64,000 nt of DNA from Planctomycetota bacterium. GTDB taxonomy: Bacteria > Planctomycetota > PLA2 > JAEUHO01. Positions 9,755-63,671 of this stretch are shown in pieces. Below the pieces are notes generated by a model. It was not told the DNA's origin. It was given only the letters and a program-made list of their open reading frames with translations, and ran no database searches. The first letter of the stretch is position 1; the number at the start of each line of letters is the position of its first letter. A program made the translations under genes and the position numbers. Where the stretch lies: positions 2,624,001 through 2,688,000 of the forward strand of contig CBDCTJ010000007.1 of assembly GCA_965222115.1 (NCBI GenBank), written 5' to 3'.

Positions 9755-9933
9755 CGTTACCCGTTACCCGAATCCCGTCACCCGGACTCAAGTGTGATCG
9801 CTCAATGATCGATTCGCGCCGGTTCGTGGACGTGGACGTGGACGTGGACGTGGACGTGGACGTGGACGTGGACGTGGACGTGGACGTGGACGTGGACGTG
9901 GACGTGGACGTGGACGTGGACGTGGACGTGGAC
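9755..9933 (+). repeat. Repeat module: heptamer run + block X + (GTGGAC)18
   Basis: CCCGTTA CCCGAAT CCCGTCA, then CCCGGACTCAAGTGTGATCGCTCAATGATCGATTCGCGCCGGTTC, then 18 GTGGAC units (9826-9933). Confidence 0.95.
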
Positions 9934-9935
9934 GA

Positions 9936-10310
9936 TCAAGGCTCGTCGAACCTTCGTTGAAGCACGAACAACATAGCGGCGGATCGCTCTAGTATGTTCA
10001 TGACACCTGAGATTGCGGCCTCGCTGGAGAGTCCGAGTAGTAGAGCCTGATGTAGAGCGGCAATGGCCTCGGTGCGTTCGGCGTGTGCGATGTCGTACGC
10101 TTTGCGTTTCTCGGCTGGCCGTCGTTTCGAGAGTCCTTCGGCGACGTTTAGGGCAACGCTGACACTTGCGCGCCTGAGCTGATCTGCGAGCTTTGCGTGG
10201 CCCCGAGGCCATGCCGCGCAGGTTGCTACGCACTCGACTGCCGCGGCCTGCGAAGCACGGTAGACATCGAAGCGTTTGAGGTACTCGAGCGTGGAAGTCG
10301 CGCTTGTCAT
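9936..10310 (-). CDS. Four-helix bundle protein, subfamily A copy 1 (TIGR02436 / 23S rRNA IVS protein / Avd-like)
   Basis: 124 aa. Family signature FDVY...LADQLRRASVSVALNVAEG...YDIAHAE..E, with GGAG upstream of the ATG. Three close paralogs in the window. Confidence 0.88.
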   Translation of the reverse strand: MTSATSTLEYLKRFDVYRASQAAAVECVATCAAWPRGHAKLADQLRRASVSVALNVAEGLSKRRPAEKRKAYDIAHAERTEAIAALHQALLLGLSSEAAISGVMNILERSAAMLFVLQRRFDEP

Positions 10311-10467
10311 GATGGAACTCCGGCGTGAAAGGAGCGCAAGCCGTTTGCTCGCGTGTGCCCTTCGCAAAAGAGCCGAAGGCGAAGGAGGGCGCACGCGAGC
10401 GGACCGTACGAACAAGGTCCCGCGTGGACTCGGCAACCCGTTCCATGCTGGAGTTCCATCACAAGCG
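10301..10467. ncRNA. Conserved structured leader A (fold-back covering RBS and start codon), copy 1
   Basis: Outer arms 10301-10323 and 10448-10467. Inner 15-bp stem 10347-10361 / 10386-10400. Conserved in four copies. Whether it acts as RNA or ssDNA is not established. Confidence 0.6.
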
Positions 10468-10510
10468 GCGCCCGCGCGTACCGGTCGCGCATGAGTTACC
10501 GATGGCCTGC

Positions 10511-10740
10511 CCCGAATCCGTCACCCGTTACCCGAATCCCGTCACCCGGACTCAAGAGTGAGCGTCCGATAATCGATTCACGCAGGCTCGTGGACGTGGA
10601 CGTGGACGTGGACGTGGACGTGGACGTGGACGTGGACGTGGACGTGGACGTCAAGAGCAAATGGCCTTGCCATTTGCGCAAAGACCCTGAGTAAGCACCA
10701 GCGGATCTTTGATCCGCGCGGTGCGCATCGAAGGGTGGTC
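10511..10740 (+). repeat. Repeat module: heptamers + X + (GTGGAC)10 + hairpin block Y
   Basis: GTGGAC x10 at 10590-10649. Y = GAGCAAATGGCCTTGCCATTTGC..GACCCTGAGTAAGCACCAGCGGATCTTTGATCCGCGCGGTGCGCATCGAAGGGTGG. Confidence 0.95.
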
Positions 10741-10795
10741 GTCGTAGGCCAAGGGCGCGAATCGGTGCCAGGAGCGAACGTGTGGAAGGGGTGAG

Positions 10796-11218
10796 CTACT
10801 CGCGCCGTACGTACTTCTGCAGCTCTTCCACATGCTCCTGCTCTTCGCGCACCATGCCGCGTGCGTACTCTTCAAGGGCGACTTCGTTCTCGGGAATGAG
10901 TTTGAGGAGCGCAAGGTAGCCATCAACGGCGGCCTTCTCTGCTTCGAGGTTGGACTCAAGCATTTCCTGGACATTGAGGCTCTTTGTTTCCCAGGCCTTT
11001 TGGGCCTCAATATTGGGCTGACTGCCAAGCGAAACGATCTTCTCGCCAAGTTGAATGGCGTGCTGCAGGCTCTCTTGCGCATTCGCCCGCAGGTAGTTGA
11101 CGATGGGTTCACGGCCCCAACCGAAGACCATGAAGCTGTGGTGGAGGTAGCGATTGACGCCTTCCATTTCCATGGCGAGCAGACGATTGAGCTGATCGAT
11201 GAGCGCTTGATTTTGCAC
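10796..11218 (-). CDS. Bacterioferritin / ferritin-like protein
   Basis: LNRLLAMEMEGVNRYLHH, ESLQHA, LEAEKAA and EEQEH di-iron type motifs. GTG start with GGAGG RBS. Confidence 0.85.
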   Translation of the reverse strand: MQNQALIDQLNRLLAMEMEGVNRYLHHSFMVFGWGREPIVNYLRANAQESLQHAIQLGEKIVSLGSQPNIEAQKAWETKSLNVQEMLESNLEAEKAAVDGYLALLKLIPENEVALEEYARGMVREEQEHVEELQKYVRRE

Positions 11219-11286
11219 GGGGCCTCCGAAGGTCAGGGTCAGCCGCAGAGGGTAGCCCGAGTCGTGGCTGAGGCTACGATCCTCCC

Positions 11287-11847: not shown

Positions 11848-11898
11848 TGTCTGGCGCGCCACAAAAGCCTGGCTTTTGCGGCGCACACGATCTCGCCG

Positions 11899-13698: not shown

Positions 13699-13737
13699 GC
13701 ACCCAGCATACGCCACCTGTAGAGATACGTTCCAGTG

Positions 13738-15030: not shown

Positions 15031-15114
15031 GGCGAATTCCTAGACGCTTCATGCGTACTCCACAGAGATTACGAGACGCTAGGATTCGAGCGCAGGTTTC
15101 CTTGCGGCCTGAAT

Positions 15115-16674: not shown

Positions 16675-16714
16675 GGGGACCTGATCTCCGAGTCCAAGAT
16701 GGTCGCCCTACACG

Positions 16715-18805: not shown

Positions 18806-18909
18806 AGTTGGTCTCCTTGGTTGGTGTTGGGGGCACGAGCGTCGCGGCTCGCGGTATCCTGCGACGGGTGCAGGCTGCGTAGTCTAGTGCGCGAACTCGG
18901 TAGTTTAGA

Positions 18910-24126: not shown

Positions 24127-24228
24127 GTGGCCGTGGACGTCGAGAGCAAATGGCTTTGCCATTTGCACGAGACCCTGAGTAAGCGCCAGCGGATCTTTGA
24201 TCCGCGCAGTGCGCATCGAAGGGTGGAC
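24127..24228 (+). repeat. Solo block Y with GTGGAC ends
   Basis: GTGGCCGTGGACGTCGAGAGCAAATGGCTTTGCCATTTGC...GCGGATCTTTGATCCGC...CATCGAAGGGTGGAC. Confidence 0.9.
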
Positions 24229-24308
24229 GTTTAGGAACCGCTGACACCGTCGATTGAAAGAACCGTCGCGAAGGGAATGCGAGATTGGCGGATGGCGCTC
24301 GTCCGGAA

Positions 24309-30537: not shown

Positions 30538-30765
30538 CCCCGATACCCGATACCCGAATCCCGTCACCCGTTTCCCGTATCCCGTCACCCGGACTCATAA
30601 GTGGACATCCGATGATCGTTCGCGCCGTTCGTGGACGTGGACGTGGACGTGGACGTGGACGTGGACATGGACGTGGACGTGGACGTGGACGCGGACGTGG
30701 AGAGCAAATGGCCTTGCCATTTGCGCGAAGACCCTGAGTAAGCACCAGCGGATCGAAGGGTGGAC
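30538..30765 (+). repeat. Solo repeat module (no cargo gene): heptamers + X + (GTGGAC)11 + internally deleted Y
   Basis: Eight heptamer units. Eleven hexamers at 30631-30696, including ATGGAC and GCGGAC variants. Y lacks TCTGATCCGCGCAGTGCGCATC. Confidence 0.92.
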
Positions 30766-44495: not shown

Positions 44496-44542
44496 GGGAT
44501 TCGATCATGGGCTCATGCGCGGCGACGCCATTCGCTCGTTTC

Positions 44543-44716
44543 CCCGTCACCCGAAACCCGAACTCAAGTGTGAGCGTCCGGTGATCGATTCGCGCCAGTT
44601 CGTGGACGTCAAGAGCAAATGGCTTTGCCATTTGCGCGAAGACCGTGAGTAAGCACCAGCAGATCTCTGATCCGCGCAGTGCGCATCGATCGGTGGACGT
44701 GGACGTACAAGTGGAC
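44543..44716 (+). repeat. Repeat module: heptamers + X + (GTGGAC)1 + Y + trailing GTGGAC units
   Basis: CCCGAACTCAAGTGTGAGCGTCCGGTGATCGATTCGCGCCAGTTC GTGGAC GTCAAGAGCAAATGGCTTTGCCATTTGC...GTGGACGTGGACGTACAAGTGGAC. Confidence 0.92.
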
Positions 44717-44736
44717 AAAAGCGTGTATCGGAGAAG

Positions 44737-44782
44737 GACCCCAACGGGGTCACGTGTAATAGCCTGGGGTTTTAACCCCAGG
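44737..44782. repeat. REP/REPIN-like double hairpin
   Basis: GACCCC-AAC-GGGGTC and CCTGGGGTT-TT-AACCCCAGG. Confidence 0.55.
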
Positions 44783-44881
44783 TATAGTCGTCTCTTCTCT
44801 TTAGCGTTCTGTAGGGACGCCGCCCGACTGCATGCAAGTCCGAGTGAGCTCCTGCGATTTCTAATCTGCGCAGAACGCACC

Positions 44882-45036
44882 GAACTGCTTGCTGTATGAC
44901 TTGAAAGTGCACGGGGCAACACCCTTTGGGAAGTGCTACGTGCATGCCCCACTCGCCACGAGGGCGAGGGCACGCACTCGCATTCCCGCGGGTGTTTCCT
45001 CGTGGAGCTTCTCGTATGTCATACAGCAAACAGTTC
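44882..45036. ncRNA. Conserved structured leader B, copy 1
   Basis: GAACTGCTTGCTGTATGAC (44882-44900) pairs 18/19 with GTCATACAGCAAACAGTTC (45018-45036). Nested stems AACACCC/GGGTGTT, GTGCATGCCC/GGGCACGCAC and CTCGCC/GGCGAG. Confidence 0.6.
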
Positions 45037-45402
45037 TCGGTTACTTCCACGGCGGGTCGGCTTGAACGATTCGATGTGTATCGAATCGCACGTCGTGTCG
45101 CGGCCAGTATTCACCAGCTCTGTGGATCGCTGCCTCGAGGCAACGCCGAGCTTGCAAGCCAAGCTCGACGAGCCTCTACAGCCGTCGTCCTCAACATCGC
45201 GGAGGGTATCGGCCGCGCTGGCGCGGGCGCCAAACACCGCTCGTTCTCAATTGCTCGCGGTGAGTGCGTCGAGGCCGCCGCGGCACTCGACCTCATGCAG
45301 GCGATGGGCATTATCACAGGAGCCAGCGCCGCACCGACGCTTCATGATCTAGATCGCGTCCGCGCGATGCTGAATGCGCTGATCCGCCGCTGGCGGGAGT
45401 GA
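45016..45402 (+). CDS. Four-helix bundle protein, subfamily B copy 1
   Basis: 128 aa. FDVY...LASQARRASTAVVLNIAEG...FSIARGECVE, with GGAG 8 nt upstream. Confidence 0.88.
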   Translation: MSYSKQFSVTSTAGRLERFDVYRIARRVAASIHQLCGSLPRGNAELASQARRASTAVVLNIAEGIGRAGAGAKHRSFSIARGECVEAAAALDLMQAMGIITGASAAPTLHDLDRVRAMLNALIRRWRE

Positions 45403-45475
45403 GGCACGCCCATTCGCAGCGAACCTCGCAAAAAGTGCCGGGTGTAATTTTGCACCGGTTAGCGCACTCCCGCCA

Positions 45476-45844
45476 CCCGTCACCCGTTCCCCGAAACCCG
45501 TCACCCGGACTCAAGTGTGAGCGTCCGATAATCGATTCGTGTCGCGTTCAAAACGTGGACGTGGACGTGGACGTGGACGTGGACGTGGACGTGGACGTGG
45601 ACGTGGACGTGGACGTGGACGTGGACGTGGACGTGGACGTGGACGTGGACGTGGACGTGGACGTGGACGTGGACGTGGACGTGGACGTGGACGTGGACGT
45701 GGACGTGGACGTGGACGTGGACGTGGACGTGGACGTGGACGTGGACGTGGACGTCGAGAGCAGATGGGCGAAGCCCGTTTGCACGAGACCCTGAGCAAGC
45801 ACCAGAGGATCTGTGATCCGCGCGGTGCGCATCGAAGGGTGGAC
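45476..45844 (+). repeat. Repeat module: heptamers + X + (GTGGAC)33 + Y
   Basis: 33 units at 45555-45752. Y hairpin variant GCAGATGGGC-GAA-GCCCGTTTGC. Confidence 0.95.
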
Positions 45845-45858
45845 GCCCTCGATGCCTA

Positions 45859-46551: not shown

Positions 46552-46713
46552 GATCGCGAGACTCCTGAATCGGGAATGCATGTCAAGCGCAGTTCGAGTA
46601 TCGGGGGCATCGCATGGCGCAAAATTTCAGTTTCAGCATCCGAGGCGAATTTCTAGCCCCCTGCGGTGCGCTTCGGAAGGGACTCCGGTACGTGATTCGG
46701 TAAGCTCTCGACC

Positions 46714-47709: not shown

Positions 47710-47752
47710 CGCATGCATGTGCTACTCGACATATGTCCCGCGCTCATCGTTT

Positions 47753-47833
47753 CCCTTTTCCCGTTTCCCGTCACCCGGAATCCAGATTTGTGCCGGGTGC
47801 ATTTTCGCGCGCGGTGTGCATCGAAGGGTAGAC
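47753..47833 (+). repeat. Degenerate repeat module (heptamers + tail of Y)
   Basis: CCCTTTT CCCGTTT CCCGTCA CCCGGAA ... CGCGCGGTGTGCATCGAAGGGTAGAC. Confidence 0.75.
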
Positions 47834-47835
47834 GC

Positions 47836-48210
47836 TCATGGAACGTTGAATCGCCGCTGGAGGACGAACAACATCGCGGCGGTTCGCTCCAGCGTGTTCA
47901 TGACTCGCGAAACTTTGAGTTCACTCGAGAGACGGAGTAGGAGCGCGTGATGTAGAGCCGCGATGGCTTCGGTGCATTCGGCGTGTGCAATGTCGTAGGC
48001 CCTGCGCTTCTCGGCTGCCCGCCGTTTCGATAGGCCTTCGGCGACGTTTAGGGCAACGCTGGTGCTTGCGCGCCTGAGTTGATCGGCAAGTTTTGCGTTG
48101 CCTCGTGGCCACTCGGCGCAGATGGCGACGCACTCGACTGCCGCGGCCTGCGAAGCACGGTAGACGTCGAAGCGTTTGAGGTACTCGAGCGTTGAAGACG
48201 CGCTTGTCAT
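47836..48210 (-). CDS. Four-helix bundle protein, subfamily A copy 2
   Basis: 124-aa close paralog of 9936-10310. Confidence 0.88.
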   Translation of the reverse strand: MTSASSTLEYLKRFDVYRASQAAAVECVAICAEWPRGNAKLADQLRRASTSVALNVAEGLSKRRAAEKRRAYDIAHAECTEAIAALHHALLLRLSSELKVSRVMNTLERTAAMLFVLQRRFNVP

Positions 48211-48366
48211 GATGGAACTCCAGTTGAAGGGAACGCAAGCCGTTTGCTCGCGTGTGCCCTTCGCAAAAGAGCCGAAGGCGAAGGAGGGCACACGCGAGCG
48301 GGTCGTACAAACAGAGCCCGCGTGACAGCGACAACTCGTTCCCAAACTGGAGTTCCATCACAAGCG
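48201..48366. ncRNA. Conserved structured leader A, copy 2
   Basis: CGCTTGTCATGATGGAACTCCAGTT / AACTGGAGTTCCATCACAAGCG. Perfect inner stem GCTCGCGTGTGCCCT/AGGGCACACGCGAGC. Confidence 0.6.
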
Positions 48367-48417
48367 GCGCCTGCGCGTACCGAACGCGCTATGGCAACCG
48401 GCGGTGCTGTCCAAGGC

Positions 48418-48651
48418 CCAGTCACCCTTCACCCGTTACCCGTTACCCGTAAACCGAATCCCAGACTCAAGGGTGAGCGTCGGATGGACGATTCGCGCCG
48501 TCTTTACGTGGACGTGGACGTGGACGTGGACGTGGACGTGGACGTGGACGTGGACGTGGACGTGGACGTGGACGTGGACGTGGACGTGGACGTGGACGTG
48601 GACGTGGACGTGGACGTGGACGTGGACGTGGACGTGGACGTGGACGTGGAC
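48418..48651 (+). repeat. Repeat module: heptamers + X + (GTGGAC)24
   Basis: 24 units at 48508-48651, no Y block. Confidence 0.93.
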
Positions 48652-48673
48652 GTGGAATCAGATTGGGTGCATC

Positions 48674-52594: not shown

Positions 52595-52764
52595 CCGTTA
52601 CCCGAAACCCGAAACCCGGGCTCAAGTGTGAGCGCTCAATGATCGATTCACGCCGGGTCGTCGAGAGTGAATGGCTTTGCCATTTGCACGAAGACCCTGA
52701 GTAAGCACCAGCGGATCTCTGATCCGCGCAGTGCGCATCAAAGGGTGCGCATCGAAGGGTGGAC
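52595..52764 (+). repeat. Repeat module: heptamers + X + Y with zero internal GTGGAC units
   Basis: ...GATCGATTCACGCCGGGTC is joined directly to GTCGAGAGTGAATGGCTTTGCCATTTGC. 14-nt duplication GTGCGCATC(A/G)AAGG. Ends in GTGGAC. Confidence 0.9.
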
Positions 52765-52810
52765 CTCAAGTAGCGTAATAGTCGTATGCGTTCGGTACCG
52801 ATGGACCACC

Positions 52811-52965
52811 GAACTGTTTGCTGTGTGACGTGAACGCGCACTGGGCAACACCCTTTGAGAAGTGCTACGTGCATGCCCCATTCGCCATGAGGGCGAGGGC
52901 ACGCACTCGCATTCCCGCGGGTGTTTCCTCGTGGAGTTTCTCGTATGTCACACAGCAAACAGTTC
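52811..52965. ncRNA. Conserved structured leader B, copy 2
   Basis: GAACTGTTTGCTGTGTGAC (52811-52829) is the exact reverse complement of GTCACACAGCAAACAGTTC (52947-52965). Confidence 0.62.
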
Positions 52966-53331
52966 TCGATTACTTCCACGGCAGGTCGGCTTGAACGTTT
53001 CGACGTGTATCGAATCGCACGCCGTGCCGCGGCCAGCATTCACCAGCTTTGTGGATCCCTGCCGCGAGGCAACGCCGAGCTTGCAAGCCAAGCTCGACGA
53101 GCCTCTACAGCCGTCGTCCTCAACATCGCCGAGGGCATCGGGCGCGCTGGCGCAGGCGCCAAGCACCGTTCGTTCTCCATCGCTCGCGGCGAGTGCGTCG
53201 AGGCCACCGCGGCACTCGACCTCATGCACGCGATGGGAATCCTTACAGGCGCCCACGCCGCGCCAACGCTTCGCGACCTTGACCGCGTTCGCGCAATGTT
53301 GAACGCGCTCATCCGGCGCTGGAGGGAATGA
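52945..53331 (+). CDS. Four-helix bundle protein, subfamily B copy 2
   Basis: 128-aa close paralog of 45016-45402. Confidence 0.88.
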   Translation: MSHSKQFSITSTAGRLERFDVYRIARRAAASIHQLCGSLPRGNAELASQARRASTAVVLNIAEGIGRAGAGAKHRSFSIARGECVEATAALDLMHAMGILTGAHAAPTLRDLDRVRAMLNALIRRWRE

Positions 53332-53339: not shown

Positions 53340-53572
53340 CCCGTTACCCGAGACCCGTTACCCGGACTCAAGTGTGAGCCTCTGATGATCGATTCGCGCC
53401 GTTCGTGGACGTGGACGTGGACGTGGACGTGGACGTGGACGTGGACGTGGACGTGGACGTGGACGTGGACGTGGACGTGGACGTGGACGTGGACGTGGAC
53501 GTGGACGTGGACGAAACCCTGAGTAAGCACCAACGGATCTCTGATCCGCGCGGTGCGCACCGAACGGTGGAC
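53340..53572 (+). repeat. Repeat module: heptamers + X + (GTGGAC)18 + Y lacking first hairpin
   Basis: 18 units at 53405-53512, then GAAACCCTGAGTAAGCACC...GGTGGAC. Confidence 0.93.
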
Positions 53573-54283: not shown

Positions 54284-54322
54284 CGCCGTACTATACCCGC
54301 TGGTTCACCCCGGAGTCGGTCC

Positions 54323-55147: not shown

Positions 55148-55157
55148 CCTCTCGGGC

Positions 55158-56339
55158 ATGAATGCACCCTCACCGGCCACCCTCGTTCTTGCCGACGGGT
55201 CGGTCTTTCACGGACGACACTTCGGCGCCGACAAAGCGCGCGCGGGCGAAGTCGTGTTCAACACGGCCATGACCGGATACCAAGAGATCGCGACCGATCC
55301 GTCGTACGCGGGGCAAATTGTCTGCATGACGTACCCCCACATCGGCAATACCGGCGTGAATGACGAAGACCTCGAAGCGGCCCACCCGTGGATCGAGGCC
55401 TTCGTCGTGCGCGAACATTCGCCGATTGCCAGCAACTTTCGTTCGAACAACACCTTGGATGGATGGCTCAAGGCACACGACATCATTGGCATAGAAGGTG
55501 TTGATACGCGGCGCCTCACGCGTCATGTACGAACTATGGGAGCCATTGGCGGTGTCGTCGGCGGACCGGGAAGCAAGACCGACGCACTTTTGGAACAAGC
55601 GAAAGCGTTGCCTTCAATGGCCGGCATGGATCTTGTGACCACGGTGACATGCAAAGAGCCGTATTCCTTTGGTGAAGCGTGGCCCGAGCCATGGTTCCCT
55701 TCGCCAGAACACATCGGACAAGGACGCGACGGTGTTGGGCCTTCGAAGGCCGATTCGCTCTCGCCCAAGTCGGTCGTTGTCATGGACTTTGGTGTGAAAC
55801 GCAACATTCTTCGTTCACTTCGTACCTTTGGCTTAGAGCCTTACGTGGTTCCTGCCTCGACCTCAGCCGCCGACATTTTGGCGCGTAATCCCGACGGCGT
55901 GTTTTTTAGCAATGGTCCGGGAGATCCCGCCGCCGTTACCTATGCCATTGACACCATCAAGGAACTGCTGGGCAAGGTTCCCACATTCGGGATTTGCCTC
56001 GGGCACCAACTGATGGCGTTGGCGGCGGGGGCAAAGACCCGCAAGCTCAAGTTCGGTCACCGCGGCGCCAACCATCCCATTCGCGAACACGCCACGGGTC
56101 GCATAGAAATCACGAGCCAAAATCACGGCTTTGTGGTGGAAGAAGAGAGCCTGGGCGGCACCCCATTCAAGCCTACGCACACCAACCTCAACGACAACAC
56201 CAATGCCGGCATGGCCAGCGAGGCCCTACGCGCATTCGCCGTCCAGTACCACCCCGAGGCCGCCCCCGGTCCACGCGACGCCGGGCATCTGTTTTATCGC
56301 TTTCGCCAGCTGATTGAAGGTAGTGCAACGTTGGTGTGA
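55158..56339 (+). CDS. carA: Carbamoyl-phosphate synthase small subunit
   Basis: GEVVFNTAMTGYQE, SNGPGDP, GICLGHQ, ITSQNHGF, VQYHPEAAPGP. Confidence 0.97.
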   Translation: MNAPSPATLVLADGSVFHGRHFGADKARAGEVVFNTAMTGYQEIATDPSYAGQIVCMTYPHIGNTGVNDEDLEAAHPWIEAFVVREHSPIASNFRSNNTLDGWLKAHDIIGIEGVDTRRLTRHVRTMGAIGGVVGGPGSKTDALLEQAKALPSMAGMDLVTTVTCKEPYSFGEAWPEPWFPSPEHIGQGRDGVGPSKADSLSPKSVVVMDFGVKRNILRSLRTFGLEPYVVPASTSAADILARNPDGVFFSNGPGDPAAVTYAIDTIKELLGKVPTFGICLGHQLMALAAGAKTRKLKFGHRGANHPIREHATGRIEITSQNHGFVVEEESLGGTPFKPTHTNLNDNTNAGMASEALRAFAVQYHPEAAPGPRDAGHLFYRFRQLIEGSATLV

Positions 56340-56363
56340 CCCCAGTGAGCTTCCTCGCGGTTG

Positions 56364-56465
56364 CCCGTTACCCGTGATGCGCGGCCCGACACCCGTTACC
56401 CGATACCCGGACTCAAACGTGAGCGTACGATGGTCGATCTGTGCAGCGCGCATCGAACGGTGGAC
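56364..56465 (+). repeat. Degenerate repeat module (heptamers + X fused to tail of Y)
   Basis: CCCGTTACCCGATACCCGGACTCAAACGTGAGCGTACGATGGTCGAT...GCGCATCGAACGGTGGAC. Confidence 0.85.
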
Positions 56466-56467
56466 GG

Positions 56468-56842
56468 TCAGGGACCGCCGAATTTGTGTTGAAGCACGAA
56501 CAACATGGCGGCGGCGCGTTCTAGGGTGTTCATCGCCTGCGACGTTGCGCGCTCGCTTGCGATTCCAAGCAGCTGGGCGTGATGCAGCGCAGCGATCGCT
56601 TCGGTGCACTCGGCGTGGGCGATGTCGTATGCCTTGCGCTTCTCGGCGGGGCGGCGCTTCGCCAGCCCCTCTGCGACGTTGAGTGCAACGCTGGTACTAG
56701 CGCGCCGGAGTTGATCGGCGAGTTTTGCGTGGCCTCGAGGCCATGTTGCGCAGAGCGCGACGCACTCGACTGCTGCTGCCTGCGAAGCACGGTAGACATC
56801 GAAGCGTTTGAGGTAATGGAGCGTGGAAGACGCGCTTGTCAT
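56468..56842 (-). CDS. Four-helix bundle protein, subfamily A copy 3
   Basis: 124-aa close paralog of 9936-10310. Confidence 0.88.
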   Translation of the reverse strand: MTSASSTLHYLKRFDVYRASQAAAVECVALCATWPRGHAKLADQLRRASTSVALNVAEGLAKRRPAEKRKAYDIAHAECTEAIAALHHAQLLGIASERATSQAMNTLERAAAMLFVLQHKFGGP

Positions 56843-57000
56843 GATGGAACTCCAGCGTGAAGGGAACGCAAGCCGTTTGCTCGCGTGTGCCCTTCACAAA
56901 AGAGCCGAAGGCGAAGGAGGGCACACGCGAGCGGGTCGTACAAAAAGTCCCCTCGTGACAGCGACAACTCGTTCTCAAGCTGGAGTTCCATCACAAGCGC
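56832..57000. ncRNA. Conserved structured leader A, copy 3
   Basis: GCGCTTGTCATGATGGAACTCCAGC / GCTGGAGTTCCATCACAAGCGC. Confidence 0.6.
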
Positions 57001-57041
57001 AGCCCGCGCGTAACGGTCGCGCATGCCTTGCCCGCGGCCCG

Positions 57042-57345
57042 CCCGGAATCCGTCACCCGTATCCCGTCATCCGGACTCAAATGTGGACATCCGATGATCG
57101 ATTCACGCCGGTTCGTGGACGTGGACGTGGAGAGCAGATGGGCGAAGCCCATTTGCGCGAAGACCCTGAGTAAGCACCAGCGGATCTCTGATCCGCGCAG
57201 TGCGCATCGAAGGGTGGACGCAAATTGGTGCCGGGCGCGAACGTGCGTGCCCCGCGACCCGTTCCCCCGTACCCCGAGCCCCGATTCCCGTCACCCATCA
57301 CTCGTTACCCGACACCCGGTCGCCAGTGTGAGCGTTCAATGAACG
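57042..57345 (+). repeat. Repeat module: heptamers + X + (GTGGAC)2 + Y, followed by a second degenerate heptamer + X block
   Basis: GTGGAC x2 at 57115-57126. Y ends at 57219. Second heptamer run from 57251. Confidence 0.9.
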
Positions 57346-57454
57346 ACTTGCAGTGCAAATTGCCACCGGGAGCGAACTCCGCGAATTGCGCTCATTTTGA
57401 GTCGTTCCCCGTCATCTGCCCGGGTAGAATCCGCTTTTACACGGAGAATGCGCC

Positions 57455-58777
57455 ATGAGCGTAACCTGTGTCTTTGGTATGCACTGGGGCGACGAGGGTA
57501 AGGGGCGCATTGTAGACCTGCTCGCCGCGCAGTCCGATGTGGTTGTCCGTTTTCAGGGTGGCGCAAACGCGGGCCACACCGTCATTGTGGACGACCAAAA
57601 ATATGTGCTTCACCTCCTGCCCTCGGGCGTGATTCAACCCAGCACGATCAATGTGATCGGAAACGGCGTCGTGGTGGATCCCGAAGTCGTGCTGGCCGAA
57701 ATCGACGAGCTTGTGGGCCGTGGGATCAAGCTCGATGGGCGTCTATTCATCTCGGACCGCGCCCACGTTGTGCTGCCGCATCACAAGTTGCTTGACCGTG
57801 CGTTTGAGGCGTTGCGTGGCGATGGCGCGCTGGGCACGACCTTTCGCGGCATCGGACCTGCATATTCGGACAAAGCGAGCCGAGACGGCGTGCGGATCGT
57901 TGACTTGCTTGAGACCAAACGTTTTGCTCCGGCGCTCACCATGGCGAAGCGCTACGGCGATCCGATTCTTGAGAAGGTGGGCATGGACCCCATCGACGTG
58001 GACGCGTCGGCAAAACAACTGTCCGCGTGGGGGAAACGATTGCGCCCCTTTGTTCGCGACACGGTTTCGTTTCTTCTTGATCAGCAAGAGAAGGGCGTGC
58101 GCATCTTGCTCGAAGGTGCGCAAGGGTACGCACTCGACATCGATCACGGCACTTATCCGTTTGTTACGTCAAGTAGTACGTGCCCGGCGGGTGCGGCTGC
58201 AGGCACGGGGTTGCCGCCGCGCGCGATCGACGAAATGGTTGGTGTTGTTAAGGCCTATAGCACGCGCGTGGGCGCTGGACCATTTCCCACGGCAGCGGAA
58301 CCGTCGGTCGCGGAACATCTTGGCAAGCACGGCGCCGAATTTGGCGCTACGACCGGGCGACCACGGGGCTGCGGCTGGTTCGATGGCGTGATCGCGAAGC
58401 GTGCCATTGAAACGCAGGGCGTCGATTCTGTTTGCCTCATGAAGATGGACGTGCTCTCGGGACTCACCGAAATCAAGGTGTGCACGGCCTACACATACCA
58501 AGGAGAAACGCTTACTGCGCCGCCGGCTTGGATTGGTGACTGGGACGACCTGAAACCGGTCTATACCACCTATGACGGTTGGAACGAGGACATTTCTGGC
58601 GTTCGGCACTTCATCGACTTGCCGGTCGCGGCGCAACATTACGTACATGCGATTGAATCGTTCCTCAACACGCCCATATCCATTGTGAGCGTGGGGCCGG
58701 AACGCGATCAGTTTATTGACATGACGCGTCCGCATCAATCTGTAAAAAACGTGGGTTCCAAAGTACAGGCCGGATAG
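57455..58777 (+). CDS. purA: Adenylosuccinate synthase
   Basis: WGDEGKG, GGANAGHT, EGAQG..LDIDHGTYPFVTSS, EFGATTGRPRGCGWFD. Confidence 0.97.
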   Translation: MSVTCVFGMHWGDEGKGRIVDLLAAQSDVVVRFQGGANAGHTVIVDDQKYVLHLLPSGVIQPSTINVIGNGVVVDPEVVLAEIDELVGRGIKLDGRLFISDRAHVVLPHHKLLDRAFEALRGDGALGTTFRGIGPAYSDKASRDGVRIVDLLETKRFAPALTMAKRYGDPILEKVGMDPIDVDASAKQLSAWGKRLRPFVRDTVSFLLDQQEKGVRILLEGAQGYALDIDHGTYPFVTSSSTCPAGAAAGTGLPPRAIDEMVGVVKAYSTRVGAGPFPTAAEPSVAEHLGKHGAEFGATTGRPRGCGWFDGVIAKRAIETQGVDSVCLMKMDVLSGLTEIKVCTAYTYQGETLTAPPAWIGDWDDLKPVYTTYDGWNEDISGVRHFIDLPVAAQHYVHAIESFLNTPISIVSVGPERDQFIDMTRPHQSVKNVGSKVQAG

Positions 58778-58806
58778 CGGCCTGGCACGAAAGAGGCACG
58801 TCGCGC

Positions 58807-59715
58807 ATGACCAGCGATTCCACGTCTACGTCAAAGAGCAGTCGCGATGTGCGCGTGCGACTCGTCGTAGCACCCATCGTCTTGGCCGTCGTATTGGGCA
58901 CGATCTGGCTCGCTGAACACTTCGAGTCGCGCCTTCCACTTCATCTCTTGATCATGTTTTTTGCCATTGGTTCAGGCATTGAGTTTGTGCGCATGCTTGC
59001 GCCGTCAGGGACAAGCGAGCGCCTCAAGGGCGGAGCGTTGGCGTGGATCACGTGCGGACTGCTTGCGGGGGTGGGTTTGATCGAGCTTCTGCGGCCCACG
59101 TCAAGTTACGTCGCCGATGCGGGTCTGCGCATGGAACTGCGCGTACTCATCGTCATCGCATTCACCTGGTGCATCTTGGTGGGCAAGTACTTCTTGGATA
59201 CACGTCACAAATCCACGTCCGAAATTGGCCGCGTCTTTCTGCCCGTGCTCTACATCGGCCTACCGCTCTCGCTAGCATGTGAAATTTGTGCTGGCCCTCT
59301 TGCGGCGCGTCGGGTCATGTGGGTGGTCTTGGTCGCCAAAGCGTGTGACATCGGTGGCTGGGTATTTGGCAAGCTGTTTGGCAAGCACAAAATGGTGCCC
59401 ACCGTGTCGCCAGGAAAGTCGTGGGAAGGCACCACGGGGGGCATTGTCCTGAGCATCGCCGCGGCGGTATTCCTTCCCGACCTATTCGGATTGCCTGAGT
59501 CCGAGTGGTCCGTAGCGATGCGCGTGGGATTCGGATTCATGGTGGGGGCGGCCACCATCTTGGTGGGCGTCACGCAAAGCGGATGGAAACGCCGTGCAGG
59601 CGTCAAGGACTCAAGCGCCCTGATTCCGGAGATGGGCGGCATCCTCGACATGACCGATTCGCTGCTCTTTGCGGTTCCGGTGGCGTATCTGTGGTATCGA
59701 TTTGTGGTGGCGTAG
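58807..59715 (+). CDS. cdsA: Phosphatidate cytidylyltransferase
   Basis: VSPGKSWEG, KRRAGVKDSSALIPEMGGILDMTDS. Confidence 0.92.
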   Translation: MTSDSTSTSKSSRDVRVRLVVAPIVLAVVLGTIWLAEHFESRLPLHLLIMFFAIGSGIEFVRMLAPSGTSERLKGGALAWITCGLLAGVGLIELLRPTSSYVADAGLRMELRVLIVIAFTWCILVGKYFLDTRHKSTSEIGRVFLPVLYIGLPLSLACEICAGPLAARRVMWVVLVAKACDIGGWVFGKLFGKHKMVPTVSPGKSWEGTTGGIVLSIAAAVFLPDLFGLPESEWSVAMRVGFGFMVGAATILVGVTQSGWKRRAGVKDSSALIPEMGGILDMTDSLLFAVPVAYLWYRFVVA

Positions 59716-59778
59716 TTGAACGCGTTAGAGTGGCCGGCCCTTTCGAAGACATATCATCAAAAGCACCACGAGTTCCAC

Positions 59779-60846
59779 ATGCCCCAAGTCCGCATCGCCA
59801 ACACCGGAGAAGCCGCGCAGCGCGTGTTGTTTGGTCCTATGGACAAACATCTGCGCCGGATTCGTGAGCATTTCGGCGTGCGCATAAGCGCTCGCAACGA
59901 AGTACTCACGCTTGAGGGCGACGATGTGGACGCGGTTGAAGATGTCGCGCGACGATTGAAGCGCGTGTTGGGTCGCATGAATGGGCGCACCGAGCCACCT
60001 GAGAACGAAGTCGAAGAGATTTTGCTTGGATCCGGAAAGCCATCGTCGAGTCGCAAGATTCGAACCTCAAACGGACCACGCACGGGCACAGGCCAAGCGC
60101 CTCACCGCATGTCGAAGACCACGGCGCGTGATCACGGCGGTTCGATTGCACCCAAACCAAAGACGCCGGGCCAAGAACGCTACATCGATGCCATCCGAGA
60201 GCACGACGTCGTGTTTGCCTTGGGGCCGGCGGGCACGGGCAAAACGTTTTTGGCAGTCGTAGAAGCCGTGCGTTGCCTACGAGACGGCACGGCCCGCAAG
60301 ATTATCCTCACGCGTCCCGCGGTGGAGGCAGGTGAGAAGCTAGGATTTTTGCCGGGTGATTTTCAAGCGAAGATCAATCCCTATTTACGACCGCTCTATG
60401 ATGCGCTGGGCGAGTTGCTAACGCACGCCGAAGTACAACGCTACTTCGAGGCCGACGTGATTGAAATTGTGCCGTTGGCCTATATGCGCGGTCGCACCTT
60501 GAAAGAGGCATTCATCATTCTTGACGAGGCGCAGAATACGACTCCCGCGCAGATGAAGATGTTTCTCACACGTATGGGCGAACGATCCAAAGTCGTCGTA
60601 AATGGCGACGCATCCCAGGTGGACTTGCCCGGTGGAACTACATCATCGGGGCTGAGTCAAAGCGTTCGCATTCTTGAGGATGTTCCCGGAATCGCCGTGG
60701 TTCGCTTCGCACCAACCGACATATTGCGTCATCCGTTGGTTCAACGCATTGTGGATGCCTATGACCGCGAAGACGATCGACGAGCAGCGAATGAGTCATC
60801 AAGCGACGCAGACGATGTGAGCGACGACGAATCGCAAGGCGCATGA
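59779..60846 (+). CDS. phoH: PhoH family ATPase
   Basis: [39 protein letters not shown]. Confidence 0.95.
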
Positions 60847-61310
60847 GTGGCGGTTCCCCAACGGCTTCCGTATCGATTGTCGATTGCGTAGAGATTCCCG
60901 GAGGTAAGTCGGTTTTCGAGCGACGCATGCAAGCTGTGGCACACATGGCGGCTGCCTATGCCGGGTGTTCGTTGGAGCTCGTCTATGTGGTGCTTGGGGA
61001 CGACGAGATGCGCGCGCAGAACAAAGCTGCGCTCAACCATGACTATCCAACCGATGTGCTCTCCTTTGACATGGGTCACACACACGACATACGTCACGGC
61101 GAGATCCTTGTGTCGGCCGACACCGCCGTTCGTGAAGCAGCATCTCGCGCACACAGTGGGGCAGATGAGTTGTGCCTGTATGCAGTTCACGGCACACTCC
61201 ACTTCGTGGGGTACGACGATCACGATCCCGCCGATCGAAGACGAATGCGTGCTGCCGAGAGGCGATGGCTACGCCGATTGGGTTGCAATGCAATCTACGG
61301 ACGTCGGTAA
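60843..61310 (+). CDS. ybeY: rRNA maturation RNase YbeY
   Basis: [19 protein letters not shown]. Confidence 0.93.
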
Positions 61311-61395
61311 TCGCCCCCGCCCTACTCACGCCCCCCGCGAATGATTGCCCTTTACGCCTCTCTCTCCGAGGATAGGGCGTCCTTCGGAGATCGTC

Positions 61396-62589
61396 ATGTC
61401 GAGTCAGCAGCACCTTGTCGAACGCGTCTTAGAAATGGGCGTGGCCACCCGTGAGCAGGTGGATGAGGCCCTTGAAATTTGCAGTCGGCTCAGTGAAATG
61501 GGCATGAAGTCGCGCTCCGTGATCGACGTTCTTTTCGAAAAGGAATACATCGACAAGGAAGTTTTCGATCGGCTCCAGCGCGAAGCCAAGCGTGTGGAGG
61601 GCAAAGAGCAAATTGCCGGCTATCGCCTCCTCGATCGTCTCGGTGAGGGCGCGATGGGTGCCGTCTATCGTGCAAAGCAGCTTTCGCTGGATAGAGAAGT
61701 GGCTGTCAAGGTTCTCGACCCCGAACTGGCGAGCAATGACGAGTACGTCAAGCGTTTCATGAGCGAGGCGCGCGCCGTGGCCCGACTCAATCACACAAAC
61801 ATTATCAGCGGCATCGATGTGGGCGACGCAGACGGCATCAAATATCTCGTTATGGAGTATGCCGACGGAATGACGGTGAGTTCCCTGCTTGAACGCGGCG
61901 GTGCGCTCGATGAAGAGCGCGCGTTGTGGGTTGTGCTCCAAATGGCTCGTGCCTTAGATCACGCGCATCGCAACAACTTGGTTCACCGCGACGTCAAACC
62001 CGACAACATCATCATCACGAAAGATGGCGTCGCGAAGCTGTGTGACTTGGGTCTTGCCCGATTGGAAAGCGCGGAGGGTGAGGCGCCCCAACGTATGGGC
62101 ACCCCCGCCTACATTTCGCCCGAGCAGGCTCGCGGCGATGTAACCGTGGACGAACGTACCGATCTCTATAGCTTGGGCGCCACGTGGTTTCACATGGTAA
62201 CCGGTCGCCCGCCCTACACCGGCAACGACGCAGGTGCTGTACTCGCCAAACACCTCACGGAACCCGTGCCCCACGTGCGAACAATCGATCCCACGATTAG
62301 CGAGATGAGCGATGAACTGGTCTTTGGTCTGCTCCAAAAGCGCCGCGGCGACCGAACCGAGTCCGCCAGCGTTTTGATTCCGCAGTTGGAATCCGCCATT
62401 CGCGAATTGCAGTTGGCTCGTGGTGCCAGCCCCTCCAGTGCGATGGGCGTAGCAGCGAAAGCAAAACCAGCCGCCGGTTCCATCAAGGTTCCTGTGCGTC
62501 CCGCAGCCCCGGAACCGCGCTCCGCGGATGTTCCCAGTCGTCCAAGTGCTCCGATCGCTCCAAGACCAAGGCGTCGGCGAAGGCGTTAG
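61396..62589 (+). CDS. Serine/threonine protein kinase
   Basis: LGEGAMGAVY, VAVK, HRDVKPDN, CDLG, GTPAYISPEQ. Confidence 0.95.
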   Translation: MSSQQHLVERVLEMGVATREQVDEALEICSRLSEMGMKSRSVIDVLFEKEYIDKEVFDRLQREAKRVEGKEQIAGYRLLDRLGEGAMGAVYRAKQLSLDREVAVKVLDPELASNDEYVKRFMSEARAVARLNHTNIISGIDVGDADGIKYLVMEYADGMTVSSLLERGGALDEERALWVVLQMARALDHAHRNNLVHRDVKPDNIIITKDGVAKLCDLGLARLESAEGEAPQRMGTPAYISPEQARGDVTVDERTDLYSLGATWFHMVTGRPPYTGNDAGAVLAKHLTEPVPHVRTIDPTISEMSDELVFGLLQKRRGDRTESASVLIPQLESAIRELQLARGASPSSAMGVAAKAKPAAGSIKVPVRPAAPEPRSADVPSRPSAPIAPRPRRRRRR

Positions 62590-62653
62590 GGTTCGCCTCC
62601 TAGCGGACAGTTTTCTGCACGTGGTTCCCGACTCTGTTTTCAGCGCCCGTATG

Positions 62654-62758
62654 CCGTTACCCGTTACCCGAGACCCGATACCCGATACCCGATACCCGAT
62701 ACCCGGTCTCAAGTGTGAGCATCCGATGATCGATTCGAGGCACGTTTAAGACGTGGAC
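62654..62758 (+). repeat. Repeat module: heptamers + X + (GTGGAC)1
   Basis: CCCGTTA CCCGAGA (CCCGATA)4 CCCGGTCTCAAGTGTGAGCATCCGATGATCGATTCG...GTGGAC. Confidence 0.9.
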
Positions 62759-62760
62759 GA

Positions 62761-63135
62761 TCACGGTTCGTCGAATCGGCGCTGAAGTACGAACAACATG
62801 GCGGCGGATCGCTCCAAGCTGTTCATGACGAGTGAGATTGCGGCTTCGCTGGCGAGACCAAGCAATAGCGCGTGGTGTAGAGCGGCAATGGCCTCGGTGC
62901 ATTCGGCGTGTGCGATGTCGTAGGCCCTGCGCTTTTCGGCTGGCCGCCGTTTCGATAGGCCTTCAGCGACGTTTAGCGCAACGCTGGTACTTGCGCGCCT
63001 GAGTTGATCGGCGAGCTTTGCGTGGCCGCGAGGCCATGCGGCGCAGATTGCGACGCACTCGATCGCCGCGGCTTGCGAAGTACGGTAGACATCGAAGCGT
63101 TTGAGGTACTCGAGCGTAGAAGAGGCGCTTGTCAT
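62761..63135 (-). CDS. Four-helix bundle protein, subfamily A copy 4
   Basis: 124-aa close paralog of 9936-10310. Confidence 0.88.
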   Translation of the reverse strand: MTSASSTLEYLKRFDVYRTSQAAAIECVAICAAWPRGHAKLADQLRRASTSVALNVAEGLSKRRPAEKRRAYDIAHAECTEAIAALHHALLLGLASEAAISLVMNSLERSAAMLFVLQRRFDEP

Positions 63136-63291
63136 GATGGAACTCCAGATGAAGGGAACGCAAGCAGTTTGCTCGCGTGTGCCCTTCGCAAAAAAGCCGA
63201 AGGCGAAGGAGGGCACACGCGAGCGGGTCGTACAAAAAGAACCCGCGTGAAAACGACAACTCGTTCCCAAGCTGGAGTTCCATCACAAGCG
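63126..63291. ncRNA. Conserved structured leader A, copy 4
   Basis: CGCTTGTCATGATGGAACTCCAG / CTGGAGTTCCATCACAAGCG plus the inner 15-bp stem. Confidence 0.6.
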
Positions 63292-63342
63292 GCGCCCGCG
63301 CGTACCGTTTGCGCTGGAGCTACCGGCGGTGCTGTCCAAAGT

Positions 63343-63671
63343 CCCGTCACCCGTTACCCGTCACCCGTTACCCGTCACCCGTTCCCCGTGACCCGTACTC
63401 AAGGGCGGGCATCCGATGAACGATTTGCGCCGTCTTAACGTGGACGTGGACGTGGACGTGGACGTGGACGTGGACGTGGACGTGGACGTGGACGTGGACG
63501 TGGACGTGGACGTGGACGTGGACGTGGACGTGGACGTGGACGTGGACGTGGACGTGGACGTGGACGTGGACGTGGACGTGGACGTGGACGTGGACGTGCG
63601 ATCTGCAATACCCGTTACCCGAACCCCGTCACCCGCTACCCGGGCTCAAGTGTGAGGCTCCGATGATCGAT
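63343..63671 (+). repeat. Repeat module: heptamers + X + (GTGGAC)26, then a second heptamer + X block
   Basis: 26 units at 63440-63595. Second block 63611-63671. Confidence 0.93.

Follow-up and report, generated by a model that had tools for sequence, protein, structure and literature searches.

Small four-helix-bundle (4HB) proteins of the PF05635/TIGR02436 type are known from the intervening sequences (IVS) of 23S rRNA genes and from diversity-generating retroelements (DGRs), where the fold is represented by Avd. Stand-alone PF05635 proteins are very common in bacteria; to our knowledge, no function is known for them outside DGRs. How rRNA intervening sequences move has, as far as we know, been an open question since the early 1990s. 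Here, we describe stand-alone genes of this type in a Planctomycetota bacterium (assembly GCA_965222115.1; 4.55 Mb in 7 contigs, about 90% complete). The window under analysis is a stretch of 64,000 nucleotides, positions 2,624,001-2,688,000 of contig CBDCTJ010000007.1 (C7; other contigs are named correspondingly). It contains six such genes, each with a fold-back leader and each located among mosaic repeats, which are referred to as modules. The best explanation for them is a lineage-specific family of small insertion cassettes that lack a transposase. To the reading that these cassettes spread among recombinogenic module junctions by recombination, with no enzyme encoded in cis, we assign a probability of roughly 40%.

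The IVS of Leptospira and Coxiella, like the cassettes, are small insertions of selfish appearance with a single open reading frame (ORF), which codes for a PF05635/TIGR02436 protein. Both lack an enzyme for mobility, are distributed sporadically and have a long, stable helix of a kind suited to RNase III. According to PMC4990558, the Coxiella IVS is cut out by RNase III; its ORF is reported as decaying. The cassettes differ from an IVS in their position, all six being located between protein-coding genes and not in helix 25 or 45 of an rRNA. They also differ in the extent of the helix, which closes on the leader and the first 0-22 nt of the ORF, whereas the terminal repeats of an IVS enclose the ORF. 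Finally, the cassette flanks are direct mosaic repeats, and the genome has 18 intact, selected copies, as opposed to the decaying ORF of Coxiella.

The likeness to DGRs lies in the protein fold. PF05635 is described as Avd-like (PMC10053308). An AlphaFold2 (AF2) model computed from an alignment of 18 sequences is a four-helix bundle (pLDDT 94.2). Foldseek aligns this model best with XCC0516 (2GSC, TM 0.84/0.90), BT_0352 (2RLD, 0.76/0.87) and Avd (4DWL, 0.74/0.85), and also matches it to the structure of a DGR ribonucleoprotein (8UB7). A search with the sequence profile against PDB sequences retrieves 2GSC at an E-value of 4e-9. Together with the family matches given below, the predicted fold agrees with a first-pass annotation of the window, made from the letters alone, which had assigned the proteins to a fold family that takes in IVS proteins and Avd. 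Unlike in DGRs, no reverse transcriptase (RT) match is found beside any cassette, sequence identity to Avd is 7-9%, and the repeats found are modules that flank the genes and are not located inside a target gene.

Several repeat and cassette systems provide further comparisons. Bacterial interspersed mosaic elements and repetitive extragenic palindromes (BIME/REP, E. coli) and the pneumococcal BOX elements are mosaic intergenic repeats. Integron cassettes, mobile insertion cassettes (MICs) and pdif modules are promoterless units with a small gene and without an enzyme of their own. GGGNATC heptamers, which form G-quadruplexes (G4), occur in Xanthomonas and Nostoc; they prefer four units and are found chromosome-wide with no terminus or strand preference, and a search of the main text gave no mention of 4HB/IVS genes (Rehm et al. 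2015, PMC4692102).

The six 4HB genes of the window belong to two subfamilies, A (four genes) and B (two genes), which share 41-43% protein identity. All of them match PF05635 and TIGR02436:

9936..10310, minus strand: 4HB gene A1 (124 aa)
45016..45402, plus strand: 4HB gene B1 (128 aa)
47836..48210, minus strand: 4HB gene A2
52945..53331, plus strand: 4HB gene B2
56468..56842, minus strand: 4HB gene A3, inserted between carA and purA, as judged also from the gaps in relatives
62761..63135, minus strand: 4HB gene A4

The profile matches are well above the cut-off for PF05635 (55.8-70.2 bits compared to 33.8, E-values from 6e-15 to 2e-19) as well as for TIGR02436 (52-73 bits compared to 24), so that the six 4HB genes recognized from the letters alone are confirmed. 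Each had been described as sitting among unrelated genes. The neighbors are indeed unrelated core or housekeeping genes, coding for a GNAT protein, a ferritin-like protein, the nuo operon, an ilvE-like protein, an isopropylmalate/isocitrate dehydrogenase, carA, purA, cdsA, phoH, ybeY and a Ser/Thr kinase.

The genome as a whole has 18 PF05635 genes (10 A, 8 B), all above the cut-off and all with an open reading frame. They occur at 13 loci that span 573 kb (C7:2,274,558-2,848,046), which bears out the proposal of a recurring, multiplied unit of gene, leader and repeats. The repeat blocks were mapped genome-wide by BLAST and with regular expressions. There are 43 modules consisting of a heptamer run and a block called X, 40 of them on C7 between 2.274 and 2.939 Mb and three on C3. 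The same C7 stretch holds 25 of the 27 (GTGGAC)n runs of at least three units, the other two being on C3. Heptamer-phased G3N4 runs of at least four units number 35, with 33 on C7 between 2.27 and 2.945 Mb and two on C3. Of the 43 modules, 27 lie directly next to a 4HB gene and 16 occur alone; gene-less tandems are also present. Viewed from the genes, BLAST detects a module of X and heptamers on both sides of 13 of the 18 genes, on one side of four and on neither side of one; most of the gaps are filled by degenerate heptamer runs or modules seen by eye. Most 4HB genes are thus accompanied by modules, and the association is far beyond chance.

One copy (C7:2274542-2274931, subfamily A) has its stop codon changed to Trp and extends by five codons into a decayed hexamer run. 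In addition to the 18 intact genes, two truncated cassettes were found. The 5' part of an A cassette (C7:2443636-2443960) lies beside a tyrosine integrase and an rve transposase, and the 3' part of a B cassette (C7:2359613-2359830) has its X block split by an IS110-family element. Cassette decay does occur, each of the two having been cut by another mobile element.

It might be argued that an ordinary paralog family just shares intergenic space with generic repeats, so that there is neither a unit nor mobility. A repeat block called Y, of which there are 39 copies, has a 54-nt core in common with a repeat family that is also scattered across C1, C3 and the remainder of C7 (five copies each on C1 and C3), G4 heptamers are common intergenic repeats in other bacteria (PMC4692102), and the gene copies are old (see below). 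This view is contradicted by the counts above, according to which modules, hexamer runs and G-runs occur essentially only where the genes are, and by an orientation relative to the modules that is fixed per subfamily in all 18 cases. Furthermore, the carA-purA site is empty in relatives, the genes of relatives are not syntenic, a genome from another family has an analogous grammar, and tandem repeats are 13-fold enriched near 4HB genes in 107 loci from other lineages (all detailed below). We therefore consider it very improbable.

The Y-related dispersed family (e.g., C1:57140-57193, C3:138470-138524, C7:2420891-2420944) comprises a conserved 5' box and a hairpin with compensatory changes, then a CTTACTCAGGATCT box, another hairpin that is variable, and a TCTCCGACACG tail. 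Either a REP-like element or a small RNA is conceivable; in the window, Rfam has no match to it.

On the plus strand of the replichore to which the window belongs, a module consists, in this order, of CCCGTNA heptamers, the block X', a (GTGGAC)n run and the Y' hairpins. The modules are directly oriented, and the following were delineated in the window:

9752..9933, plus strand: module downstream of A1, with 4 heptamers (9760-9783), X' and (GTGGAC)x18 (9826-9933), which abuts the stop codon
10516..10742, plus strand: module upstream of A1, with heptamers and X' (10516-10588), (GTGGAC)x10 (10590-10649) and a Y double hairpin (10652-10742)
24143..24230, plus strand: isolated Y block (module-type subfamily), then a decayed hexamer
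30539..30754, plus strand: solo gene-less module between convergent genes, with 8 heptamers, X', (GTGGAC)x6+3 and a partial Y
44543..44700, plus strand: module upstream of B1, with heptamers and X' (44543-44595) and Y (44610-44700), without a long hexamer run
45469..45845, plus strand: module downstream of B1, with 6 heptamers and X', (GTGGAC)x33 (45555-45752) and Y (45786-45845)
47753..47835, plus strand: degenerate module downstream of A2, with a 4-unit heptamer run and a Y-like remnant
48425..48651, plus strand: module upstream of A2, with heptamers and X', then (GTGGAC)x24
52595..52747, plus strand: module upstream of B2, with heptamers, X' and Y
53340..53570, plus strand: module downstream of B2, with heptamers and X', (GTGGAC)x18 and Y
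56365..56438, plus strand: module downstream of A3, starting about 25 nt past the carA stop codon
57050..57345, plus strand: two tandem modules upstream of A3, of which one, reaching to 57220, has heptamers, X', 2-3 hexamers and Y, and the other is degenerate and gene-less (57251-57345), then a conserved purA promoter-proximal motif
62660..62704, plus strand: degenerate module downstream of A4, a 7-unit heptamer run
63343..63671, plus strand: two tandem modules upstream of A4, the first with 8 heptamers and X' and (GTGGAC)x26 (63440-63595), the second with heptamer and X' (63610-63671)

The first-pass annotation had described each gene as bracketed on both sides by directly oriented modules. 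Modules are present and directly oriented, while for A2 (47836) and A4 (62761) the downstream one is degenerate, with only a heptamer run (47753-47776 and 62660-62704, respectively). A better description than bracketing is that the gene units are positioned where two tandem modules meet. On one side of each gene unit is the hexamer/Y' end of a module, and on the other side the following module starts with its heptamers. Relative to the modules, all A units are inverted and all B units forward. With M for a module, this gives M<-A M, M B->M and, found at four loci, M<-A M B->M. In A units, the hexamer run starts 3 nt past the stop codon.

Modules vary in composition. They are mosaics of 150-350 nt that are 59-87% alike, the sub-blocks combine variably, and some lack the hexamer run or Y. 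The (GTGGAC)n runs have between 3 and 33 units, and four is the commonest length among the heptamer runs of four or more units (16 of 35). A canonical, putative G4 motif is present in 32 of the 43 modules, on one defined strand. Compensatory variants of the hairpin are found across the 39 copies of Y. A twin origin of the two flanking modules, as for long terminal repeats (LTRs), was considered and rejected. Modules that flank the same gene have a similarity of 0.705 compared to 0.665 for random pairs (238 of 10,000 random sets are as high), and of the 13 flanking pairs just 2 match each other best. Because the similarity is near-random and mutual best matches are few, the flanking modules are not LTR-like duplicates.

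These properties can be compared with the repeat and cassette systems introduced above. Like BIME/REP and BOX elements, the modules have recombining blocks, an internal tandem unit and compensatory hairpins, they are intergenic (often at convergent 3' ends), and they form tandem clusters. They differ in that they bracket a protein-coding gene and are confined to the terminus with a replication polarity (see below), and the RAYT-like gene (REP-associated tyrosine transposase) of this genome has a different REP. With the GGGNATC heptamers of Xanthomonas and Nostoc they share heptamer-phased G3N4 runs that are non-coding, lie near ORF ends and favor four units; here, in contrast, the runs are terminus-restricted and polar, are part of a larger module and are tied to one gene family. 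Like integron cassettes, MICs and pdif modules, the cassettes are small, promoterless units without an enzyme, which have a fold-back or recombination site, sometimes form short arrays and occur in either orientation. Unlike in integron cassettes, the fold-back is located at the 5' end over the start codon (judged by eye) and not at the 3' end as attC, and the heptamers do not fit GTTRRRY. The flanks are direct mosaics of 150-350 nt, not inverted repeats or 28-bp Xer sites, and the copies are single among core genes. Insertion sequences (IS) and miniature inverted-repeat transposable elements (MITEs) differ from the cassettes, which have directly oriented flanks without terminal inverted repeats and no transposase in cis. 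A CRISPR array is also unlike them, since the mosaics are only 59-87% alike, the "spacers" would be genes, and the sole cas-type gene examined is 2 Mb away. The statement that the cassettes fit no IS, MITE, integron, CRISPR or DGR architecture thus holds for the definitions that could be tested here.

The leaders, which make up 140-205 nt of a gene unit, were delineated in the window as follows:

10311..10515, minus strand: leader A fold-back of A1; the closing helix pairs with the Shine-Dalgarno (SD) sequence and ATG
44725..45015, plus strand: leader B of B1; the conserved rod core starts at about 44875 and continues 22 nt into the ORF, the 5' part being unique to B1
48211..48389, minus strand: leader A fold-back of A2
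52807..52944, plus strand: leader B fold-back core of B2
56843..57047, minus strand: leader A fold-back of A3
63136..63325, minus strand: leader A fold-back of A4

A conserved fold-back before each gene had been noted, and it is found in both subfamilies. The minimum free energy (MFE) is well below that of shuffled sequences, with z-scores of -6.0 (A) and -7.9 (B). The A leaders (n=10) are predicted to adopt a multi-helix fold of about 170 nt with a 21-bp closing helix, in which GATGGAACTCCAGC pairs with GCTGGAGTTCCATC. The latter strand includes the GGAG of the SD sequence and reaches the ATG. For the B leaders (n=8), the prediction is a single rod some 60 bp long that spans -140 to +22 and covers the SD sequence, the ATG plus six codons; codon 3 takes part in one compensatory change. 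Both types have near-perfect helices of 21-22 bp. The leader is thus predicted to base-pair the SD sequence and the start codon and would act as a start-occluding fold-back. Paired positions are kept in 96.7% (A) and 97.5% (B) of the cases. Invariant columns amount to 65% in leader A and 81% in leader B, compared to 25% and 31% at third codon positions; the leaders are constrained almost like non-synonymous sites.

In the part of the leader found only in B1, the Rfam model of the Acido-Lenti-1 small RNA has a full-length match below threshold (44737-44782, minus strand; 25 bits compared to a gathering threshold of 37; E-value 0.011 on 4.4 kb). It was retrieved in an Rfam search of 44400-48800 with E-values up to 1.

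The leader helix raises the possibility that the cassettes are IVS-related elements at the RNA level. They would be co-transcribed, the leader helix would be cut by RNase III, the RNA would be copied by a resident RT, and the Avd-like protein would serve as RT cofactor. The family membership and the fold of an RT cofactor fit, helices of 21-22 bp have the size accepted by RNase III, and the lack of a detected promoter in two scanned cassettes fits co-transcription. RVT_1 has seven matches in the genome, which represent two three-copy families and a Cas6-RT-Cas1 fusion. The window's copy of one of these families lies in a group II intron at 7041-8986, just outside the annotated range (9755-63671) and only 0.77 kb from A1; Rfam assigns D1-D4 to 7041-7263 (113 bits) and domain V/VI to 8910-8986, and the RT ORF is at 7563-8891. 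Its flanks, though, are unrelated to the modules, and of the six copies in the two repeated families (the other being an RT of 515 aa) only one is near a cassette. No DGR-type RT was found among the seven matches. No cassette is located in an rRNA gene, and at gathering thresholds Rfam finds only the group II intron, and no rRNA, in the whole window. The helix encloses the leader and the start codon and not the whole ORF. Poly-A, template-repeat or target-primed signatures are not seen, and neither replication polarity nor terminus clustering would be explained. We regard an RNA-level element as unlikely.

The Cas6-RT-Cas1 fusion is a hallmark of RT-assisted CRISPR adaptation. It has 996 aa and is encoded at C7:261157-264147 (L172:2658-5648, minus strand).

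That the cassettes are insertions is concluded from the carA-purA gap, which is empty in relatives. The gene order AIRC-carA-purA-cdsA is conserved in the family. In 13 of the 18 loci from relatives that hold both carA and purA, the gap has about 76-298 nt, and four gaps that were read exactly have 105, 122, 171 and 298 nt. Here, the gap is 1,115 nt and contains, from about 25 nt past the carA stop codon, a module, A3, two modules and the conserved purA-proximal motif. The comparison of this site with relatives, proposed in the first-pass annotation, thus shows the cassette as an insertion into a conserved gene order. The other five gaps (G005, G006, G010, G023, G024) have 750-1,080 nt of other content, and these five genomes have no PF05635 match. 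The content of these enlarged gaps (L049, L050, L052, L053, L055; three other genera) is unrelated, e.g., an ORF of 299 aa in L049, and carA-purA may be a recurrent insertion spot. A second site, maf-[A,B]-S1, has conserved synteny in relatives on its S1-MBL side; in none of 16 loci from relatives was maf found within 1.5 kb of S1, so that no gap is measurable. Vertical inheritance of syntenic paralogs is not what is seen, as the 4HB loci of relatives share flanking genes with the window in 0 of 20 cases.

In subfamily A (45 pairs), dS has a median of 0.67 and dN/dS one of 0.11; in subfamily B (28 pairs), the medians are 0.54 and 0.075, respectively. These values indicate that the copies are old and that each is kept by purifying selection. 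The amplification proposed earlier is therefore retained as far as the unit has been multiplied, but not as a recent burst. The coding sequence of A1 and that of the copy at C7:2730842 are 96-100% identical, while the modules on both sides are only 70-78% identical and the leader is patchy. This pattern, seen in this one pair, is compatible with gene conversion, or with a gene unit having been re-inserted between modules that were already in place.

As first noted, the cassettes themselves encode no transposase, and none adjoins an intact cassette. Among 148 flanking ORFs, from which 15 ORFs overlapping cassettes had been removed, there is no recombinase next to an intact cassette, and genes for a transposase or an integrase occur only beside the two truncated ones. 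The first-pass annotation had suggested mobilization in trans by an HUH/RAYT nuclease, a recombinase or an RT, a link for which the genome gives no support. The sole clear Y1_Tnp gene (RAYT/IS200-like, C7:1411691-1412035) has its own REP-like repeat on both sides, with further copies on C1, C3 and C7. A RAYT-REP link to the modules was rejected, since this repeat differs from them, the best match to module parts being 7-12 nt. The integron integrase model TIGR02249 has four matches in this genome, which is about 90% complete, none of them above the cut-off (best 86 bits compared to 265).

The IS110-family element in the X block of the decayed B cassette (DEDD_Tnp_IS110 and Transposase_20; C7:2359830-2362000, L176) has its first approximately 323 bp triplicated. 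Further copies are found at C7:506880-508415 and C3:484746-486286, where the targets are different. With three copies in different targets, this family was rejected as the mobilizer.

In the reading that we prefer, the modules would be fragile, recombinogenic repeats of the BIME/BOX kind, which combine a G4 motif, a microsatellite and hairpins. Gene units would be moved or copied between module junctions via module homology, either by ectopic gene conversion after fork stalling or breakage or by Campbell-type integration of an excised circle with module and gene. No enzyme would be needed in cis. The protein, by analogy to Avd and XCC0516, may be a nucleic acid-binding oligomer. The leader would normally keep it translationally silent, and it would probably act on the repeats or on its own RNA, thus favoring maintenance of the cassette.

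A number of observations weigh against this reading. Homologous recombination does not explain how modules first arrive at a new intergenic site. Simple gene conversion would not lead one to expect the terminus clustering and replication polarity described next, for which something further has to be assumed. With dS at 0.5-0.7, most copies have long been stationary, and only one of the 45 A pairs looks recently exchanged (dS 0.078); the genome-wide test for identical tracts as traces of gene conversion is confounded by the conserved leaders. The evidence for an empty site comes from one site and from distant relatives (purA is about 60% identical). Neither excision products nor empty/occupied polymorphism nor circle junctions were seen in the available data, which are metagenome contigs of about 3-6x that break in the repeats and are uninformative on circles or absence. 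They stem from three runs of one study and map to 53600-63400, breaking inside the cassettes; contig joints between paralogous modules are assembly ambiguities. For the leaders, covariation is modest in A (4 pairs changed on both sides, reached by 3 of 500 shuffles) and weak in B (2 pairs, reached by 58 of 500). The low covariation is due to the fact that most leader pairs never vary. The MFE test gives equal stability for the antisense strand of the fold-backs, which is compatible with a role at the RNA level as well as with one at the DNA level. Finally, promoter-like sites are absent from the two cassettes scanned, and the terminator scan returned a single terminator-like site in one of these, which is inside gene A3 and at the level of shuffled sequence.

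The position of the cassettes in the replicon and the flip of their polarity are new findings that go beyond the window to which the first-pass annotation was restricted. The cumulative GC skew of C7 has its minimum at about 0.6 Mb and its maximum at about 2.78 Mb, 2.18 Mb apart and thus about half of the genome; they are read as origin and terminus, respectively. Around the skew maximum, a span of 12.6% of the genome holds the 13 independent gene loci (scan P about 2e-10), all cassette loci being within about 0.5 Mb of the replication terminus. Counted by locus on C7, the module orientation is 14 to 3 to the left of a switch and 0 to 6 to the right of it (Fisher p=8e-4). The last locus of the left type ends at 2,755,519 and the first of the right type starts at 2,813,528, so that the switch brackets the skew maximum. 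The hexamer runs read GTGGAC on the leading strand in 25 of 27 cases, and on C3, where the skew is negative, two of three modules fit the rule. The polarity of the modules is not explained by gene orientation, because the strand ratio for long ORFs is only 116:108 in the left part of the region. Between the oppositely oriented module pieces at C7:2813528-2815026 there are 1.4 kb with ordinary-looking ORFs. A scan of the contig with a dif consensus gave no convincing site (the best has 16 of 22 scored positions, with scattered matches). In the relatives, three loci of one genome (G013) fit the polarity rule. In another (G026), G-run polarity relative to the local skew is split 5 loci to 5, which counts against a general rule.

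TnsE-directed Tn7 insertion and IS608 show fork-direction or terminus biases. The polarity, which neighboring genes leave unexplained, and the confinement of all 13 gene loci suit a sharpened version of the earlier idea. In this version, mobilization of the cassettes, or of just the modules, would be coupled to replication and mediated in trans by an enzyme that is encoded elsewhere or has been lost and that works on replication intermediates, either an HUH/Y1 transposase acting on single-stranded DNA (as in IS200/IS605 or REP-RAYT) or a system like Tn7/TnsE directed at structures of the lagging strand or of termination. Insertions would be oriented by fork direction and would pile up near the terminus. 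Hairpins are plentiful in Y and the leaders, and the equal stability of the fold-backs on both strands is as expected for sites that act at the DNA level. This must be set against the unrelated REP of the only clear Y1 gene, which has nothing in common with the modules, and against the lack of a transposase next to intact cassettes. The flanks, being direct mosaics, have no terminal inverted repeats and no defined ends, and the IS110-family element within a module has other targets at its two other copies. G026 has no consistent polarity, and the copies are old, so that no active enzyme is required today. Taken together, we consider replication-coupled mobilization in trans possible but doubtful.

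The same layout might reflect a host function tied to the terminus. Each 4HB gene lies beside a site of its own, much as tus adjoins TerB and rtp adjoins its terminator. In the fork traps Tus-Ter and RTP-Ter, two opposed groups of polar sites surround the terminus, which is a likeness in layout only. GC-rich, structure-prone repeats (RRS) are located at the borders of the E. coli Ter macrodomain (PMC10592627). Polar, structured or protein-bound modules could, with the 4HB proteins, act as fork barriers, pause sites or organizers of a Ter domain. Two opposed groups bracket the skew switch at about 2.78 Mb, and the elements are confined to the terminus-proximal 0.67 Mb and three sites on C3. Purifying selection on genes and leaders is strong, the putative G4 motifs are on one defined strand, and the fold family, by analogy, binds nucleic acid in the DGR ribonucleoprotein (4DWL, 8UB7). 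However, 18 genes and 43 sites far exceed any known fork trap, three of 17 loci on the left side have the wrong orientation, and the divergence of the copies is like that of selfish paralogs independent of one another. Relatives have the family in a patchy manner (14 of 40 other genomes, with 0-21 copies), G026 has the same grammar without the polarity, and the family is known from rRNA IVS and DGRs, which are unrelated to termination. A host function of this kind is decidedly unlikely. It is tempting to speculate about a new kind of terminus system, in which the 4HB proteins bind polar G4/hairpin sites in two opposed groups and trap or pause forks or organize a Ter domain, each gene lying beside its own site and being kept silent by the start-occluding leader, but we consider this quite improbable. 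If true, it would be the first cellular function of stand-alone Avd/IVS-type proteins, namely the binding of tandem G-rich hexamer/heptamer repeats.

Among 40 related genomes, 14 have a PF05635 match, with between 0 and 21 copies, and none has cassette DNA, the only matches being about 100 nt or less. The nearest relatives of A and B with long matches have 30-47% identity, and the named records are mostly metagenome-assembled genomes of Myxococcota. The genome with 21 copies (G026; another family of the same order) has the same grammar in different letters, (GTGAAC)n and (GGGTTC)/(GGGGATC)n, with divergent gene pairs, hairpins that are predicted to occlude the SD sequence and repeated flanks that extend beyond the genes.

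Relatives of A and B were also collected from other lineages, using genome contigs (27 loci) and metagenome contigs (80 of 434 kept). In these 107 loci, tandem repeats of 5-8 nt with at least four copies occur 23 times within 500 nt of a 4HB match (130.7 kb) compared to four times farther away (302.9 kb), a 13-fold difference. Near DNA is richer in intergenic sequence, and the control restricted to non-ORF sequence (7 near compared to 0 far, p=0.06) is underpowered. By position in the oriented loci, 16 of the near repeats are upstream, 6 are downstream and one is near a second match. In the literature outside subscription journals, we found no description of repeat-flanked PF05635/TIGR02436 cassettes and none that links heptanucleotide or short tandemly repeated repetitive (STRR) sequences with 4HB genes.

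The cassettes provide a testable context for the orphan PF05635 family and connect two literatures, that on G4-forming heptamer repeats and that on Avd/IVS proteins. They represent a natural data set of 18 intact, selected copies with a fixed grammar and a leader predicted to hide the start codon, supplemented by solo modules, two decayed copies and one pair that looks exchanged. Placement around the terminus with a flipping polarity is unusual for dispersed repeats and suggests replication-coupled spread or a terminus-linked function. Each of the readings can be tested by simple binding, recombination or fork-pausing assays.

Two further observations concern the assembly. Contig C6 (48 kb) has a GC content of 39.7%, compared to 55-59% in the other six contigs, and a strongly negative GC skew; a plasmid, a phage and contamination during binning are possible explanations. 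An uninterrupted reading frame that exceeds 2,257 aa (positions 2-6775, plus strand) runs off the start of the window.

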